DNA from: Hypanus sabinus
Taxonomy: Eukaryota
DNA length: 64,000 bases
Assembly (NCBI RefSeq): GCF_030144855.1
Contig: NC_082706.1
Location: 20,584,001-20,648,000, forward strand
Direction: 5' to 3'
The notes under the pieces are model-generated. The model was not told the origin of the DNA. It ran no database searches and saw only the letters and a list, made by a program, of their open reading frames with translations. Both the position numbers and the translations under genes were made by a program. Below are positions 13,651-32,465 of this stretch, in pieces. How positions within the stretch are numbered: position 1 is the first letter of the stretch; every line of letters starts with the position of its first letter.

Positions 13651-14261
13651 ACTCATGCACTTATTCAATCAACCCTTAAACCACCGTGTTAAGTAATGTG
13701 TCAGTAAGTAAATTTCTCTTGAGCCCCTGACAGAATTATTTAGTTCACACTTTACATTGACGTGTCCAATTTTTGGCCTCACACAAGAATGGAAACCTTT
13801 CTGATGAAAGGCTGACAGCCATGTATTCCCAAGGTCTTCTGCTTTGATTTCTGATTTCCAGCATCAAAATAGAGACACTTTCTTTACTTCAAGATTATAA
13901 AACAGCCCTGTAATTTAAAGTCACTGCTTAAAGGACCACATTTGATATTTGCCTTATTTTCTCACTACACTACGTGAACAGCATCTGGCCCATGGAGTGT
14001 GTGTTGGATCTCAAAGTAAACCCATCAGTCTCATGCCCAGCAACCTCTGACTCTCTCTCACACACTCATCAAATCACTCACACCAGGGGCAGTTTACAGC
14101 ACAGAATTCACTCACCCATCACTGGGATGTGGAAGGAGCCCTGAGAACCTGGAGGAGATACACGTGGTCACAGGGAGTACGTGCGGACTCCACTCAGTCA
14201 GCACTAGAGGTCAGAATTGAACCTGGGCACTGGAGATGTGAGGCAGCAGCATTATCCACTG

Positions 14262-14446
14262 TGTGGTGTTAACACGTGCAATGCTGTGCCAGTATGTGAT
14301 TGAATAGAGCACTGAGCATGCGCAGGATCTGCTAGAACGTTCCAGCATGTGTTTGTTTATTACTGTAAATAAAAGTTTGATAATTCTTCCAGAAAATGCT
14401 TCTTCATTGTTAACCCATGGTACGTTTAAACAGAAGTAACATAACA
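14262..14446 (+). repeat. 5' LTR
   Basis: tgtggtg...taaca, contains AATAAA, aligns with 16364-16562. Confidence 0.95.
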
Positions 14447-14461
14447 TGGTGTCGAAAGTGG
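14447..14461 (+). promoter_or_regulatory. Primer binding site, probably tRNA-Leu
   Basis: tggtgtcgaaagtgg abuts the 5' LTR; 13/15 match to tggtgtcagaagtgg (complement of the tRNA-Leu(CAA) 3' end, recalled). Confidence 0.75.
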
Positions 14462-14543
14462 TTCTGGAAGAATAATACAGGAGAATCGAGAATCGAAGAT
14501 AATCCGAAAAAAAGAAGAAAAAGTTTGAACTGTAAACGGTAAA

Positions 14544-15320
14544 ATGGAAGGTTTACAACCCCTGCCAAAACTGCAGCTGACTGGCAATGTAGCTGAGATT
14601 TGGAGGATATTCAAACAACAGTTTGAAATATATTTATTGGCAATCGGAGCTGATAGAAAAGCGGACAAAAACAAAGCTGCACTCCTGCTCCATGTAATCA
14701 GAAATGACGCAGTAGAGGTATATAATAATCTTGTCTTTGAAGATGGTGATAATTTCAATTTAAAGTCGATAATTGAGAGATTTGAAGTTTTTTGTATAGC
14801 TAAGAGAAATTTAATGTATGAGCAATATTAGTTCTTCACATGTGCGCAGAGAGCCACTGAAACAATTGATTAGTATGTTACTGAGTTGAGAAAGCATAGT
14901 AGAACATGCAAGTTTGGATTGCTCATGTACTCTCTCATTAAAGATAGACTTGTTTGTGGCATTCCAGATAATGCTCTGAGAGAAAGGCTGTTGGGAGAAT
15001 AAGATATAAATTTTGAAAAGGCTTTGGCACTTTGCAAAGCTTCTGAGACTGTGACATTGCAGGTTGAAGAGATTTTGTGGAAGACTGCAATATAAATGCT
15101 GTAAAAAAAAAAGCGCGAATATATCAAGAAATATAATAATATGTCGACAAAACTGACAGAGAGCAAGACGGCATTGGAAAGAAAAAAATCATGTGATCGC
15201 TGTACGTGGGAACATTGTCCAAGTCAGTGTCCCACATATGGCAAAATTTGCAATGGCTGCAGTAGGATTAATCATTTTTCACGCTGTTGTAATAGTAGAA
15301 AGAAGGAAAATAAAATGAAA
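14544..15320 (+). pseudogene. gag: gag (stops and frameshift)
   Basis: 'MEGLQPLPKLQLTGNVAEIWRIFKQQFEIYLLAIG', 'LIKDRLVCGIPDNALRERLL', zinc knuckles 'CDRCTWEHCPSQCPTYGKICNGCSRINHFSRCC'. Confidence 0.9.
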
Positions 15321-15389
15321 CAAGTAAATGGCATGCTTGAAGATGAACATGAGGAGTTTTATATCGATGTGCTTTGTGAAAATAAACAA

Positions 15390-15722
15390 AGTAAGAATGA
15401 CTGGACTATTCCATTGCAAGTGAGTCAAAACAATATTCTGTTTAAACGTGATACTGGAGCGCAAGTAAATGTTCTTGCAGAATCTGAGTTTAATGCTTTA
15501 AAGCCAAGACCAAAATTACATCAGACAAATATAAAAGTGACTGGGTGTTCAGGTGCAGACATTCCAGTTAAAGGAACATGTGTGGCAAAGGTGTCTCACA
15601 AAAATATTGTGCATATGCTTTCAGTTGTGGTCATGCCGAAAAATGTACAGTCAATTCTGGGTTTATCTGCCTGTGAAAGACTTAATTTGGTGAAAAGAAT
15701 TTCTGTCTTGGATAGTGACACG
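15390..15722 (+). pseudogene. Retrotransposon aspartic protease, in frame with the gag zinc knuckles
   Basis: 'FKRDTGAQVNVL' (DTGA) ... 'SILGLSACERLNLV'. Confidence 0.9.
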
Positions 15723-15996
15723 GAGTTGAAGCGACAGAATGTTGCATTTTTGTCAGCAGAAGGTGACGTAACTTGACTGCAGGTCCAGTTCATGGAGGCA
15801 AATGCTGACATGGAGAATGTAACTGCAGTAGCTGCAGTGTCTTAGATGACCAAACAGGAGGCAATTAATGATATGAAAAAGCAATGGCAGGAGGAGGTTG
15901 CTTCAATGCAAGCGATAATGGAAGAGATACTGAGAAAATATGAGATTCAGTTTAAAGCAAGAACGCGCACAGTGGGCCCAGTATAAGGAAGAAGCG
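15723..15996 (+). pseudogene. RABEP1: Captured Rabaptin-5 N-terminal coiled-coil fragment (part 1)
   Basis: LKRQNVAFLSAEGDVT*LQVQFMEANADMENVTAVAAVS*MTKQEAINDMKKQWQEEVASMQAIMEEILRKYEIQF/KQERAQWAQYKEEA vs recalled human LKRQNAVLQAAQDDLGHLRTQLWEAQAEMENIKAIATVSENTKQEAIDEVKRQWREEVASLQAVMKETVRDYEHQFHLRLEQERTQWAQYRESA (roughly 55% identity by eye). Confidence 0.88.
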
Positions 15997-16122
15997 AAAG
16001 CCCAAGTGAAGGAATTGAGAAGTATTGAAACAATGAAGTCTCAGCATTAAAAAGAGATTACAGAGTTAATGAATGAATTAGACGAAGAGAAGAAGATTCA
16101 TATTTCATTACAAATGGAAGTG
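15997..16122 (+). pseudogene. SH3KBP1: Captured CIN85 C-terminal coiled-coil fragment
   Basis: [41 protein letters not shown] vs recalled human [43 protein letters not shown] (28 identities by eye). Confidence 0.88.
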
Positions 16123-16167
16123 GAACATGAATTGACTAATCTAAGGAAATATTTGTCTGAAGTACAA
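16123..16167 (+). pseudogene. RABEP1: Rabaptin-5 fragment resumes (part 2)
   Basis: EHELTNLRKYLSEVQ vs recalled EREIADLRRRLSEGQ, which directly follows QWAQYRESA in RABEP1. Confidence 0.7.
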
Positions 16168-16326
16168 GGAGACAAAATGAGGATACAAGATAAAAGGAAC
16201 ACATGGACACAGACCAGATCATACACGGTCCGAACAGAGGAGGGAGCGGTGTTAAGAAAGAATTACAAAGACTTCAAGAAAGAGCCAACTTCAAAGTTTC
16301 AGTTATCTGATATGGATGTTTTTTGA
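16168..16326 (+). pseudogene. Integrase C-terminal (GPY/F-like) tail
   Basis: 'GDKMRIQDKRNTWTQ..RSYTVRTEEGAVLRKN' resembles the Mag-clade pol end (GDxVR..W..RSYxV..G..RRN). Confidence 0.8.
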
Positions 16327-16350
16327 TTAACGTTAATTGTTTTTCCTTTT

Positions 16351-16363
16351 GAGGAAAGGAAGA
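16351..16363 (+). promoter_or_regulatory. Polypurine tract
   Basis: gaggaaaggaaga directly before the 3' LTR. Confidence 0.9.
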
Positions 16364-16562
16364 TGTGGTGATATCATGTGCAATGATGTGCCAGTACGTG
16401 ATTGGACGGAGCACTGAGCACGCGTGGGATTCCTAGTATGTTCCAGCACGTGGCTGGGTTAAGATGTGTTGTTTATTACTGTAAATAAAAGTTCTCTAAT
16501 TCTTCCACAAAATGATTCTTCATTGTTAACCCACAGTACGTTTAAACAGAAGTAAAACAACA
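16364..16562 (+). repeat. 3' LTR
   Basis: tgtggtg...caaca, followed by TSD cactg. Confidence 0.95.
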
Positions 16563-17717
16563 CACTGCACCACCATTACTGCTGTGCATGGCACAGAAAG
16601 AGGTCACATACCTCAGGCAGTCTTAGCTTAATTCAAAACTGCCAGCTCCATCCTTCATCTAAATCTGTCACCACAGTCTTCTCATTTACATTTGTTCAGG
16701 CTCCCCTTCAATGCATCTTTACTGTTCAATTTAAGCACTACCTTGAGGATTAAGTTCCACATTTAAACCACTGTGGAAGTGCAGGAGTTTCTTTCAAGTT
16801 GCCAAATAGGTTCCTTGGAGACTGTTAAATTTTTATTGATGGCCTCTGTTTATGCTCTGGTCCACAAATTGAATCATTTGTTCCGCATCTGCGAGATCAA
16901 TGCCTTTCATTGTATCAGATCACTTCTCCAGAGAACAGAGATCCAGTCCGCTCATTGTGACCCAGGAAATCCCCTCTCCTCCTAGTTTACCTTCTGCATT
17001 GTCTTTATACATTCAATGGCCACTTTATTAGGGACACCTGTACACCTGCGCAGTAATGCAAATATCTACTCAGCCAATCATGTGGCAGCAACTCAATGCA
17101 CAAAAGCATGCAAACATGGTAACAGCTTTTCCCTCAGGCTATGAGACTAATAAATACCCTGCCACCATTGAGGTTTCGTCGCTAGAAAATGGAGCCAATT
17201 CACTGCTTACTGCATTGTTTACTGTTCACCTGTGTGGCACAGTATATGCAATTTTGAATTATGCTTGGGCTGAATTATTCTCCGATCCTGGCAATTTCCT
17301 TGCAGACATTTTGTCACTCTATGAGGAGATACCATTAGCTAGCTGTTAATCGTGGTATGACCACAACCAACAGTGCACTGATGATGCGTCCGTGTATGGT
17401 GATAAAGTGTTTGCAAGTAAATTGCCAAAATCGGAGAACAATCCATCCCAACCATCATCACCTGAACTACACATTTTGTGAATTATTTCCATTTAGAATG
17501 ATATTTTATTAACTTATTTATGGTAGTATTGTGGTTTACATGTTGTGTGTGACATATGTTTTGTCGTTGCACTGTGGTCCAGAGGAATGTTGTTTCATTT
17601 GGTTGTGGACATGTACATCCAGATGACAATAAACTTGAACTTGAGATGAATTGTGTGCTAAAGTATTCACACACTACTCTTCAACTGTACATGACCTAAA
17701 GTGGTTTCAAAATAAAT

Positions 17718-24354: not shown

Positions 24355-26843
24355 GCTGTAAGACTTAGGAGCTAAATCCCCTGCTTTCTCCCCATACTCT
24401 TTGATGCCCTGGTTGATAACCTATCTATCTCTGCCTTAAGTACATCTAGTGACTTGGCCTCCACAGCCGCTCGTCGCAAAAAATTCCGCAGATTTACCAC
24501 CCTCTGACTAAAGTAATTTCTCTGCATCTCAATTCTTAAAGTATGTCCTTCAATCCTGAAGTTGTGCCCTCTTGTCCTAGAATCCCCTACCATGGGAAAA
24601 AACTTTCCTATATCTAACCTGTTTAGGCTGTTTAACATTTGGAATGTTTCTATGAGATCCCCCCTCATTCACCTGAACTCCAGGGAATACAGCCCAAGAG
24701 CTGCCAGACATTCCTCACACGGTAACCCTTTCATTCCTGGAATCATTCTCATGAATCTTCTCTGAACCCTCTCCATTGTCAGTATATCCTTTCTAAAATA
24801 AGGAGACCAAAACTGCACGCAATACTCCAAGTGAGTTCTCACGAGTGCCTTATGGGGTCTCAACATCACATCCCTGCTCCTATATTCTATACCTCTAGAA
24901 ATGAATGCCAACATTGCATTCATCTTCTTCACAACCGACTCAACCTGTATGTTAACCTTTAGGGTATCCTGCACAAGGGCTCCCAAATCTCCTTGCATCT
25001 CTGCATTTTGAATTCTCTCTCCATCTAAATGATAGGCTGCCCATTTATTTCTTCCACCAAAGTGCATGACTATACACTTTCCAACATTATATTTCATTTG
25101 CCACTTCTTTGCCCATTCCCCTAAACTATCTAAGTCTCTCTGCAGGCTCTCTGTTTCCTCAACACTACCTGCTCCTCCACCTATCTTTGTATCATTGGTG
25201 GAATTAACCACAAATCCCTTAATACTATAGTCCAAACCATTAACATACATCATAAACAGTAACGGTCCCAACACCAGCCCCTGTGGAACTCCACTGGTAA
25301 CTGGCAGCCAGCCAGAATAGGATCCCACTCTCCGTTTTCGCCCAACCAGCCAATGCTCCACCCACTTCCCTATAATTCCTCGGGCTCTTATCTTGCTAAG
25401 CAGCCTCATGTGCGTCACTTTGTCTACTACATCTCCTTTGCCCACCCTGCTTGTAACTTCCTCAAAGAATTGCAGTAGGTTTGTCAGGCAGGATCTTCCT
25501 TTCAGGAAACCATGCTGGCTTTGGCCTGTCATGTCATGTTCCTCCAGGTACACCATAATCTCGTCCCTAACAATTGATTCCAACAACTTCCCAACCACTG
25601 CTGTCAGGTAACAGGTCTATAGTTTTCCTTCTGATGCCTCCCACCCTTCTTAAATAGCGGAGTAACATTTGCAATTTTCCAGTACAATGGAACAATGGTA
25701 CAATGCCAGAATCTATCAATTCTTGAAAGATCATCATTAACACCTCCATAATCTCTCCAGCTACTTCCTTCAGAACCAGAGGGTGCATTCCATCAGGTCC
25801 AGGAGATTTAACCAACCTCAGATCATTAAGCTGCCTGAGTACCTTCTCAGTGTTAATTTTCACTGCACAAACCTTACTTCCCTGACACTCTTGAATGTCT
25901 GGTATACTGCAGATGTCTTCCACTATGAAGACTAATGCAAAATATGCATTCAGTTCCTCTGCCAGCTCTGCATCTTTCATTACAATATCTCCAGTGTCAT
26001 TTAGTATTGGTCCTATATCTACCCTAGTCTGTTTTACCCTTTATAAACTTAAAAAAGCTTTTAGTATCTTCTTTGATATTAGTCACCAGCTTCCTCTCAT
26101 AATACAACTTTTCCTTCCTAATGATCTTCTTAGTTTCCTTCTGCAAGGTTTTAAAAGCTCCCCAATCCTCTAGTTTCCCACTGCCTCTGGCTTCCTTGTA
26201 TACCCTCTCTTTTTTTTTCTTTGGCTCTGACCTCACTTGTCAACCACGGTAGTGTCCTACTTCTCTTTGAAAATTTCCTCTTTTTTGGAATATATCTGTC
26301 TTGCTCTTCCCTCATTTTTTGCAGAAACACCGGCCATTGCTACCCTGCTGTCTTCTGCAAATGTCCCTTTCCAGTCAACTTCGGCCAGTTCGTCTCTAAT
26401 GCCATTGTAATTTCTTTTATTCCACTGAGATACCAACACATTAGATTTTACTTTTCACCTCTCAAATTGTGATCACTATTCCCTAAGGGTTCCTTAACCT
26501 TAAGCTCTCTTATCACCTCTGGATCATTTCACAACACCCAATCCAGCACAGCCGATCCCCCAGTGGGTCCAACAACAAGCTGTTCTAAAATGCCATCCCT
26601 TAGACATCCTAGAAATTCTCTCTCCTGCAGTCCATTAATGGCCTGGTTTTCCCAATCCACTTTCATGTTAAAATCCCCAACAATTATCATGACTTTGCCT
26701 TTCTGATATGCATTTTCTAACTCCTGCTCTAATTTATAATCCACATCCCAGCTGCTGTTTGGAGGCCTGTATACAACTACCATTAGGGTCCTTTTAACCT
26801 TGCCATTTCTTAACTCAACCCACAGAGACTCTGCACCTTCCTG
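24355..26843 (-). mobile_element. Long CR1 ORF2 remnant (APE endonuclease part plus RT)
   Basis: 'ESLWVELRN..VVYRPPNS..IIVGDFN', 'KSPGPDGMHP', 'QHGFLKGRSCLTNLLQFF', 'SGVPQGLVLGPLLF', 'HLEYCVQFWSP'. Confidence 0.95.
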
Positions 26844-27361
26844 AGTGCTTACAGCGCATGGTAGTGACTGGGATAGATAGAGGGGTGCAGGGGTATAAGT
26901 AGAATGGTAGATCAGGCTACATGCCTGTAGGGTCACCCATGACACTAAGATCAAGGGGAAGGTTCCAGACAAAGCGTGATCCACCCAAGAACTCAATGAT
27001 GGAGTTGGCAGAAGATAATGACAAATCACACTGTCAGTGAAGATGGAGGAAGGTTGAAACAGTGAAAAGTCACCAGTCGTCTTGCAGTCCATGCCACTAG
27101 GCCCACACCCCAAACCTTGCAGTGGTTGCCTGTGCATCAGCACATTAAACAATTAAACAATGGAGGAATGGCAGAATCTCTCATCACGACTTTATCCAGG
27201 AGCAGAGGAACAGTACATTCCCCATGAAGAGACAAAAGCTGGAGATTAGACATAGGAATACCAGCAGAGCATGGGAGGCACAATGAGCGACACTGTGAGA
27301 CAAATCATTCCCCCAAATACACAGTAGGACCCACCAATAGATAACTCACCCACCAACATCA

Positions 27362-30019: not shown

Positions 30020-32465
30020 GGAGTTGGATTGGGTAGTCTGGGAACAGGCTATATGGTGGGATGGTTGAGGAATAGTGAAAGCTGTTCAAAGAGATTCTTC
30101 ACGGTGCTCAACAAAAGTATACTCCAGTTAAAAGCAAGGACAGTAAGGGTGGGGAGAGCCAACCATGGATAACTAAAGAAAAAAAGGAAGGCATCAAATG
30201 AAAATCTTGTGCATATAAAGTCTCCAACAGTAGTGGAAGATTGGGAAAACTTTAAAAAGCACCATAGAACCACTAAGCGAGCAATAAAGAGGAGATAGAT
30301 TATGAACTAAACTAGCACAAAAAATAAAAATGGATAGTAAAAAAGCTGAAAAGGGTGGCCAAAGTGAACACAGGTCCCTTGGATGATGAGAAGGAGGAAT
30401 TGATCTTGGATAATGAGGAAATGATCGTGGCTTTAAATGACTATTTTGTGTCAGTTTTCACAGTGGAGGTCACGTCTAACGTGTCAAAGAGAGATGATGT
30501 TGGTGCGATGGGAGGTGAGGACCTTGATACAATAGCTATCACTAAAGAGGTAGTGCTGAGCAAACTTGTGGGCCTGAAGATAAAAAAGTCCCCGGTCCTG
30601 ATGGAATGCATCCCATGGTACTGAAAGAAAGGTATTGCACTTTGGAAGGAAAAACCAATGTAGAACGTACAAGGTTAATGGTAGGACACTGGGGAGGGCA
30701 GTAGAACAGAGGAATCTAGGAATACAGATGCATAATTCCCTAAAAGCGGCATCACAGGTAGATAGGGTTGTAAAGAGAGCTTTTGGCACATTGGCCTTTA
30801 TAAATCAAAGTATTGAGTATAAGAGTTGGAATGTAATGGTGAGGTTGTATAAGACATTGATGAGGCTGAATTTGAAGTATTGTGTGCAGTTTTGGTCATC
30901 AAATTACAGGAAGGATACTAATAAGGTTGAAAGAGTGCAGAGAAGGTTTACAAGGATGTTGCCAGGACTTGAGAAACTGAGTTACAGAGAAAGGTTGAAT
31001 AGGTTAGGACTTTATTCCCTGGAGCGTAGAAGAATGAGAGGAGATTTGATAGAGGTGTATACAATTATGATGGGTATAGATATAATGAATGCAAGCAGGC
31101 ACTATCCACTGAGGCTAGGGGAGAGAAAAAATAACAGAGGACATGGGTTAGGGGTGAAAAGGGAAAAGTTTAAAGGAAACATTAGGGGGAGCTTCTTCAC
31201 ACAGAGAGTTATGGGAGTGTGGAATGAGCTGCCAGTTGAAGTGGTGAATGCGGGCTCACTTTTAACATTTAAGAAAAACTTGGACAGGTACATGGATGAC
31301 AGGGATATGGGCCAGGTGCAGGTCAGTGGGACTAGGCAGAAAAATGGTTCAGCACAGCCAAGAAGGGTCAAAGGTCCTGTTTCTGTGCTGTAATGTTCTA
31401 TAGCTCCATGGTTCTAAATGGCAGAGGTTATAGTTGAGACAATCAATTGGTGAACAGTGTGCCACAGCGGTTGGTGCTGGACCCGCAACTATTCACAATA
31501 TACATTAACGCTCTAGAAGAGGGGACAGAGTGTAGTGTATCTAAGTTTGCTGATGACACTAAATTAAGTGGGAAAGTAAACTGTGCAGAAGATACAGAGA
31601 GTGTACATAGAAATATAGATAGGTTAAGTGAGTGGGCAAGGATTTGCCAGATGGAGTACAATGTTGATAAATGTGAGGTCACCCACTTTGGAAGGGAAAA
31701 TGGAAGTTCAGATTATTATTTAAATGCTAAAAAATTGCAGCATGTATCTGTGCAGAAGGATTTGGGAGTGCTTGTGCATGAATGGCAAAGGGATGGTTTG
31801 CAGGAGCAGTGGGCTGCAAGAAGGCAAATGGAATGTCGACCTTCATTGCTAGAGGGATTGAATTCAAGAGCAGGGAGGTTATGCTGCAATTGTACAGGGT
31901 ACTGGTGAGGCTGCATCCAGAGTACTGCATGCAGTTCACTTCTTACTTGAGGAAGGATATACTGGTTTTGGAGACGGTGCAGAGGAGGTTCACCAGGTTG
32001 ATTCCAGAGATAAAGGGCTTAGACTTTGAGTTGCCAGGGACTGTACTGGATGAAATTCAGAAGGATGAGAGGAGATCTTATAGCAACATCTAAAATTATG
32101 AAAGGGATAAATAAGATTGAGGCAGGAAAGTTGTTTCCACTGGTAGGTGAGACTAGAACTAGGGGACATAGCCTCAAGGTTCAGGGGAGTAAACTTAGAA
32201 CAGAGATGAGAAGGAACTGCTTTTCCCAAAGAGTGGTGAATCTGTGGAATTCTCTGCCCAATGAAGCAGTGGAGGCTCCCTTAGTTAATATATTTAAGAC
32301 AAGACTGGATAGATTTTTGCATTGTAGGGGTTAATTGGGTTATGGGGGGAAAGCAAGTAGGTGGAGATGAGTCCATGGTCAGATCAGCTATGATCTTATT
32401 GAATGGCGGAGAAGGCTTGACGGGCCAGATGGCTGACTCTTGCTCCTATTTCTTATATTCTTATA
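30020..32465 (+). mobile_element. CR1 ORF2 remnant interrupted by a second CR1
   Basis: 'ALNDYFVSVFTVE', 'VSKFADDTKLSG', 'TRTRGHSLKV..FSQRVVNLWNSLP'. Confidence 0.9.
30628..31415 (+). mobile_element. Nested CR1 3' part (different subfamily)
   Basis: ORF 30635..31393 'HFGRKN..YCVQFWS..GLYSLERRRMRGDLIEVY' with its own tail. Confidence 0.9.

Follow-up and report, generated by a model that had tools for sequence, protein, structure and literature searches.

Probable template-switch capture of spliced RABEP1 and SH3KBP1 coding pieces by a decayed non-autonomous LTR retrotransposon family in a stingray

Acutely transforming retroviruses of the gag-onc kind are helper-dependent elements in which pol has given way to spliced host sequence in fusion with gag. 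Four further systems, as described in the available portions of the papers cited, show features also seen in the stingray element family reported here. In the LTR-mediated retrocopies of animals part of a spliced mRNA takes the place of the internal ORF between the LTRs, the junctions possess microsimilarity (median 6 bp), and multi-gene chimeras and further rounds of retroposition occur (Tan et al., 2016; PMC5131818). The same source describes maize Bs1, in which three host genes are combined in one non-autonomous LTR element with switch points shared by all copies. Plant TR-GAG elements are short, helper-moved LTR elements with a single gag-bearing frame (PMC8704663), while sense host coding fragments are found inside the frames of transposable element consensus proteins (PMC3597677). 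As far as these texts go, the route of capture is already known (Tan et al., 2016) and Bs1 is a precedent for a three-gene form.

The window (the whole stretch of Hypanus sabinus DNA analysed, 64,000 nt) contains at 14262-16562 a decayed 2.3-kb non-autonomous LTR retrotransposon in which a gag-like region and a protease are present and RT is absent (Table 1). We place at about 0.8 the probability that the segment under study is spliced RABEP1 and SH3KBP1 sequence within a dead non-autonomous element of the Ty3/Gypsy type, acquired by microhomology-guided template switching. The element has LTRs and one gag-bearing ORF without RT or integrase core, as TR-GAG elements do. Its window copy is dead and is no functional retrogene, given its stops and frameshift and the neutrality of private changes across copies. 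The gag-like region has a Cys/His-rich knuckle-like stretch near 15190-15290, gave no Pfam match over 14556-14828, and is open over 330 codons in copy L006. The protease, retained in family types A to C2 and absent in type D, directly adjoins the RABEP1 piece, the start of RT having been deleted (junction J7, 6-nt microhomology). The integrase tail remnant carries a 27-nt in-frame deletion which is lineage-level (J12). A 5-bp target duplication was found in 9/28 copies having both LTR ends, with none detected in the other 19. The primer-binding site is putatively one for tRNA-Leu, and together with the 5-bp duplication it may indicate a likeness to Mag. Elsewhere, the window has decayed LINE-type remnants with RVT_1 and endonuclease matches at 24669-27152 (-) and 31438-31905 (+), and an imperfect inverted repeat at 17258-17458 with 99-nt arms that are 72% complementary.

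Table 1. Features of the element and its captured pieces (window positions).
Feature	Positions	Strand	Remarks
Target-site duplication, 5 bp	14257..14261 (left copy), 16563-16567 (right copy)	+	
5′ LTR	14262..14446	+	Direct repeats D1, D2; K2P 0.151 vs 3′ LTR
Primer-binding site	14447..14464	+	Immediately 3′ of LTR; begins TGG; identical word in many copies
Decayed gag-like region	14545..15400	+	Aligns to all family types; named gag from its position
Aspartyl protease	15401..15721	+	PF13650, E 1.1e-5
Captured RABEP1 exon 3, all except first base	15722..15924	+	90.6% over 202 nt vs host exon 3; two stops
Captured RABEP1 exon 4, 5′ part	15925..15991	+	11-nt deletion at 15952/15953
Captured SH3KBP1/CIN85 C-terminal coiled coil	15988..16125	+	Host exon junctions at 16049/16050, 16113/16114
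Captured RABEP1 exon 4, 3′ part	16119..16172	+	46/54 nt identical to host; J6 7-nt, J2 8-nt microhomology
Integrase C-terminal tail remnant	16173..16326	+	Matches tail of integrase-bearing copies L052-L080
Polypurine tract	16351..16363	+	
3′ LTR	16364..16562	+	Direct repeats

The original prediction read the segment as RABEP1 taken from a spliced mRNA, and both parts of this hold. With stops read as X, 15723-15953 matches positions 48-124 of the Pfam Rabaptin domain (PF03528, E 4.5e-25), and its best matches among 33 proteins are ray RABEP1 sequences (81-83%); these matches, with those to the host exons, rule out a generic coiled-coil likeness. The host gene lies at G000:C24:128.44-128.58 Mb (-), its first exons translating to protein P0007. 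A search with PF09311 found this gene alone (5 matches), and RABEP2 or a second RABEP1 locus was rejected as the source. AG/GT borders flank both host exon 3 (128550494-128550291, 204 nt) and exon 4 (from 128545892). The 4,398-nt intron between them is gone from the window, where the two exons are joined directly at 15924/15925. The same join is present in all 20 loci compared (the window and 19 others), with 91-96% identity to host exon 3. The piece begins 1-2 nt inside exon 3, in line with the predicted start near an exon boundary. Each of the predicted lesions is also present: a stop codon at 15774, another at 15843, and the 11-nt deletion. The first stop, at a CpG codon of the host gene, occurs in 8/46 copies scored, the second in 2/99, and a deletion over the 11-nt stretch in 2/103. 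Being mostly private to few copies, they are attributable to post-insertion decay, as had been proposed. A Narcine RABEP1 isoform (P0010) is annotated with an RVT_1 domain, perhaps from an exonised repeat.

RABEP1 sequence stops at about 15991, is followed by a different piece and resumes within exon 4 at 16119; exon 4 is interrupted by foreign sequence in 19/20 copies, the insert being about 120 nt where exon 4 resumes. The insert is the C-terminal coiled coil of SH3KBP1/CIN85 (PDB 5abs, E 3.1e-11; 85-87% to ray SH3KBP1). In the window it is identical to the host at 129/138 nt and crosses two host exon junctions, while the long form of this capture covers four exons of the host gene on C18 with three introns gone. 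Sister copies carry in addition about 175 nt of spliced SLU7, drawn from three exons of host SLU7, which lies on C33, with two introns absent. Introns are thus missing at one RABEP1, three SH3KBP1 and two SLU7 junctions, and each of the three pieces is coding sequence in sense orientation that keeps to the frame of gag. At G000:C33:28490484 the donor of the host SLU7 exon is GC (a GC-AG intron); the element piece is spliced there too. A PWI search of the genome gave 3 matches which look like host exons. The proline-rich exons of host SH3KBP1 (G000:C18:115636685-115632187) differ from Hemitrygon at 7 residues in about 66 codons, and over the same stretch Mobula and Hemitrygon differ by 2 residues and a 3-residue indel; the host differences may reflect relaxed constraint or conversion by cDNA of the element.

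Searching with the start of RT and the tail recovered parent copies (RVT_1 E 1.5e-18; Integrase_H2C2 E 2.8e-15) in which protease is followed by RT and then by integrase just before the 3′ LTR, this being the Ty3/Gypsy order for the three domains located. Their 3′ LTR lies about 200 nt or less after the integrase tail, which leaves no room for env, and no env-like frame was found. In type A, RABEP1 exons 3-4 stand in place of RT to integrase, and in type B this interval is taken by four SH3KBP1 exons. Mosaic forms that combine A with B make up types C1 and C2, the window copy being a C2, and type D has the further addition of three SLU7 exons. The genome retains the whole series of parent, RABEP1-only, SH3KBP1-only, two recombinants and triple chimera.

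The 190 unique loci comprise 38 without capture, 45 with SH3KBP1 only, 3 with RABEP1 only (one truncated), 51 with RABEP1 and SH3KBP1, 50 with all three and 3 partial, counts which reflect the way in which loci were sampled. The clear type A copies are two, L003 and L152. An unselected sample was given by the first 30 of 157 exact matches to a tail pattern, with 10 parent, 6 B, 5 C2, 7 D and 2 other copies, so that chimeras make up 18/30. About 230 chimeric copies with an intact tail are estimated (rough range 120-390), the figure being scaled by the 37/89 known chimeras that hold the pattern. Junctions common to many copies indicate secondary retroposition. Among individual loci, L163 (C43:34.18 Mb) has two SH3KBP1-type copies in tandem with one LTR common to both, L201 is a reduced form with about 13 SH3KBP1 codons kept in frame, and in L262 the LTR is followed almost immediately by the SLU7-tail junction. 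In two ray species, annotation also lists element copies among the protein-coding genes (P0001, P0023, P0038). Both P0023, with the architecture of the window copy, and P0038, with the SH3KBP1-only one, are Hemitrygon proteins. Such copies, listed as RABEP1-like or uncharacterized ray genes, would inflate counts of gene duplication.

The capture was not made in the window copy, which arose late, through recombination between two distinct capture lineages. Types A and B would have arisen separately from the parent by switching onto host mRNAs. Their RNAs would then have been co-packaged by helper particles, one switch between A and B giving C1 (RABEP1 then SH3KBP1) and one further switch between C1 and A giving C2, while D would derive from C1 through loss of the protease and capture of SLU7. 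This order (parent to A and B, then C1, then C2 and D) is the simplest that we can infer. In a gag tree of 115 copies, C/D are separated from B/A/parent with support of 0.97-1.0, and 5′ ends have accordingly been exchanged also. LTR divergence is 0.151 in the window copy, and its medians in types B, C1, C2 and D lie at 0.10-0.14, so that amplification was old and roughly contemporaneous across types.

Microhomology at the capture junctions, together with spliced pieces that replace RT to integrase, bears out the template switching that the original prediction proposed. All ten of the capture, recombination and 5′-deletion junctions J1-J10 possess it, at 6, 8, 9, 7, 4, 7, 6, 4, 4, and 4 nt respectively. 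The RABEP1 and SH3KBP1 captures, each of which took the place of the interval from RT start to integrase tail with end points of its own, show 6-9 nt; lengths are 4 and 7 nt where RABEP1 and SH3KBP1 switch, 4 and 4 where SLU7 begins and ends, and 6 and 4 at the 5′ deletions. J11 and J12 have at most 2 nt, and J15 carries extra letters. It is highly probable that the family arose by template switching onto co-packaged spliced mRNAs, followed by recombination between passengers and helper-driven amplification.

Retrovirus-style transduction, whereby an element in RABEP1 intron 2 would have spliced its own donor to the exon-3 acceptor, is suggested by a piece which starts 1 nt from the start of exon 3. 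However, the parent lacks a donor, no GT following the junction in 4/4 parent copies shown, the first base of exon 3 is unmatched, and the SH3KBP1 and SLU7 pieces start inside exons. The start of the RABEP1 piece coincides with a 6-nt word common to the parent's RT N-terminus. This shared word explains the site, its closeness to the exon boundary being incidental; capture through the splice acceptor was accordingly rejected, and transduction is very improbable. LINE remnants do occur in the window, but a processed pseudogene made by a LINE, or a foreign sequence, which landed in an existing LTR element is refuted by the junctions and may for practical purposes be set aside: the pieces replace RT-integrase rather than interrupt it, they are internal mRNA fragments, and there is no poly(A) at the junctions. 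Against a foreign donor stand the captured residues, which follow the RABEP1 of Mobula, Hypanus and Hemitrygon rather than that of Pristis or Narcine.

That check for a foreign donor, called for at the outset, points to the host lineage, to which the donor is assigned on sequence comparison with no foreign species involved. In 98% of 98 copies there is a Glu where Hypanus and Hemitrygon RABEP1 have Asp and where Mobula, Pristis and Narcine have Glu, while the other captured RABEP1 residues agree with Mobula and the dasyatids against Pristis and Narcine. Likewise, 9 nt lost from both dasyatid SH3KBP1 genes are still present in 40/45 long SH3KBP1 copies. Retention of the Glu and of the 9 nt, with these other residues, indicates capture in the stingray lineage before the split of Hypanus and Hemitrygon. 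In two SH3KBP1-type copies, L038 (G000:C18:120.31 Mb) and L156 (C18:113.42 Mb), these 9 nt are missing as they are from the two dasyatid host genes; the copies have the present-host state at 7 and 9 respectively of the 14 sites at which most copies differ from the present host; they were likely re-templated later on host mRNA, to judge from these sites. Part of the stretch is contained in 20 sequencing runs from 12 organisms, none of these runs being listed as RNA. Among the contigs listed, the RABEP1-SH3KBP1 join is bridged in 3/4 runs examined, and one of these runs may be the genome's own source. Contigs from four runs guessed to be RNA, although these may contain DNA, cover the chimera and bridge junctions.

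Modal spacing is divisible by three at 15/15 of the lineage-defining junctions, though several of the types had first been found by protein searches. By way of control, exact word matches that parent and host pieces share fall in frame at a rate of 0.38-0.45, and 37/91 private deletions of 9 nt or more do so (5/30, 10/24, and 22/37 by type, the last being type B). At 0.45 each, the chance of 15/15 would be 0.45^15 = 6e-6, which overstates the case since the junctions are partly dependent. J7 inherits the right side of J1, for which only one copy gave a direct view. Pattern matching found J1 and the 93-nt deletion J14 in one copy each, J14 being present in 8 copies in the alignment, while J9 and J11 were measured jointly for spacing and read separately at junction alignment. 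The count leaves out the 3′-end deletion that removes the parent's stop, and J16 (159-nt deletions), which combines an in-frame event of 2 copies with another, also in frame, of 1 copy. With its internal control, this result argues against chance alone.

A wholly neutral history by the same capture route, in which Glu/Lys-rich microhomologies favour the frame, the sources were young and a few lucky loci were amplified, draws on an in-frame bias of word matches that is real (0.38-0.45), on the 22/37 private deletions of type B, and on the 14/17 young cases in Drosophila whose longest ORF is in frame, as given in the available text of Tan et al. (2016; PMC5131818). It is nevertheless unlikely, as 15/15 has a probability below 0.001 even at 0.6 per junction, and no amplified out-of-frame capture type was found among the 70 loci of the tail-pattern sample. 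We lean slightly towards a frame kept open for RNA survival or cis-packaging. Lineages would have spread only when their one frame ran on without a stop almost as far as the 3′ LTR, an open frame helping in that a translated Gag message would be spared from decay or packaged in cis, and the captured amino acids themselves would be of little importance. A counterpoint is that 101/104 RABEP1-bearing loci also hold the SH3KBP1 piece, a co-occurrence which the frame-only model fails to predict.

Significant purifying selection on the captured codons was not detected, with low power. Private substitutions in the RABEP1 piece are neutral (omega 0.93; 8 stops vs 8.4 expected), and the other captured pieces show no deficit of amino-acid changes among private changes. 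Alleles present in 10-90% of copies comprise 4 synonymous and 8 non-synonymous for RABEP1 (omega 0.71), 2 and 5 for SLU7, and 2 and 1 for the SH3KBP1 core, none of these being significant. In gag/protease, differences between main sublineages (C/D vs B/parent, and between two B groups) are synonymous-biased, with omega 0.24-0.56 and p<0.025 with each of 3 reference copies, while 0/9 comparisons among C2 and D sublineages reached significance (p 0.05-0.8). Gag can be swapped from helpers, so this bias is no proof that the elements used their own Gag.

The captured coils may alternatively have worked as protein, Gag in fusion with the CIN85 coil and together with the Rabaptin-5 coil improving the assembly or membrane targeting of passenger particles after the same route of capture. 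The main hint is that the SH3KBP1 coil core is kept in 146/152 chimeric loci though shared deletions remove its flanks. To this may be added the rarity of RABEP1-only copies (2 clear cases), and, in the parts of the papers available, reports of trimer formation by the CIN85 coil (PMC10786037) and of its affinity for phosphatidic acid (PMC4096430). No fixed differences occur in 46 coil codons in 5 sublineage comparisons, but synonymous ones are missing too, which points to a recent mosaic origin. Moreover, one B sublineage (6 copies) has lost the second half of the coil, and the shared-allele counts show no significant constraint on the pieces, at low power. A protein role is on balance doubtful, and only tentatively could the family be seen as a vertebrate Gypsy passenger lineage that took up host coiled-coil exons in frame, one after another, and shuffled them, with the CIN85 trimer coil attached to Gag and functional in assembly or in targeting to endosomal membranes. 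If true, it would be a non-infectious counterpart of the gag-onc retroviruses, with cargo that serves the element.

No literature on a RABEP1/SH3KBP1 element family was found in a search of published papers, and it is not described in the available portions of two shark and ray genome preprints. The family is a real, well-supported and unusually large variant of a known process. It forms a dated, stepwise fossil record of gene capture by LTR elements and of exon shuffling in one genome, and makes it testable whether non-autonomous cargo persists by chance, by the need for an open frame or by protein benefit. Unlike the gag-onc retroviruses, the stingray element has no env-like frame or signs of infection, and its 5′ junction was not made by splicing. 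It also differs from plant TR-GAG in being from a vertebrate and in having a frame that ends in host coding pieces, captures of host sequence by TR-GAG not being described in the text available (PMC8704663). As for host fragments in transposable element proteins, selection was seen in 9/24 testable cases in the available part of that study (PMC3597677), whereas none is detectable on the stingray captured codons. Maize Bs1, according to the accessible text of PMC5131818, is present in 1-5 copies, and one of its pieces is out of frame, in contrast to three pieces all in frame with gag and a far higher copy number in the stingray. Compared with the LTR-mediated retrocopies, again as given in the available text (PMC5131818), the stingray family has about 230 chimeras, which make up 18/30 of unselected copies, its multi-gene forms are recombinants between separately amplified capture lineages, and all intermediates have been kept.
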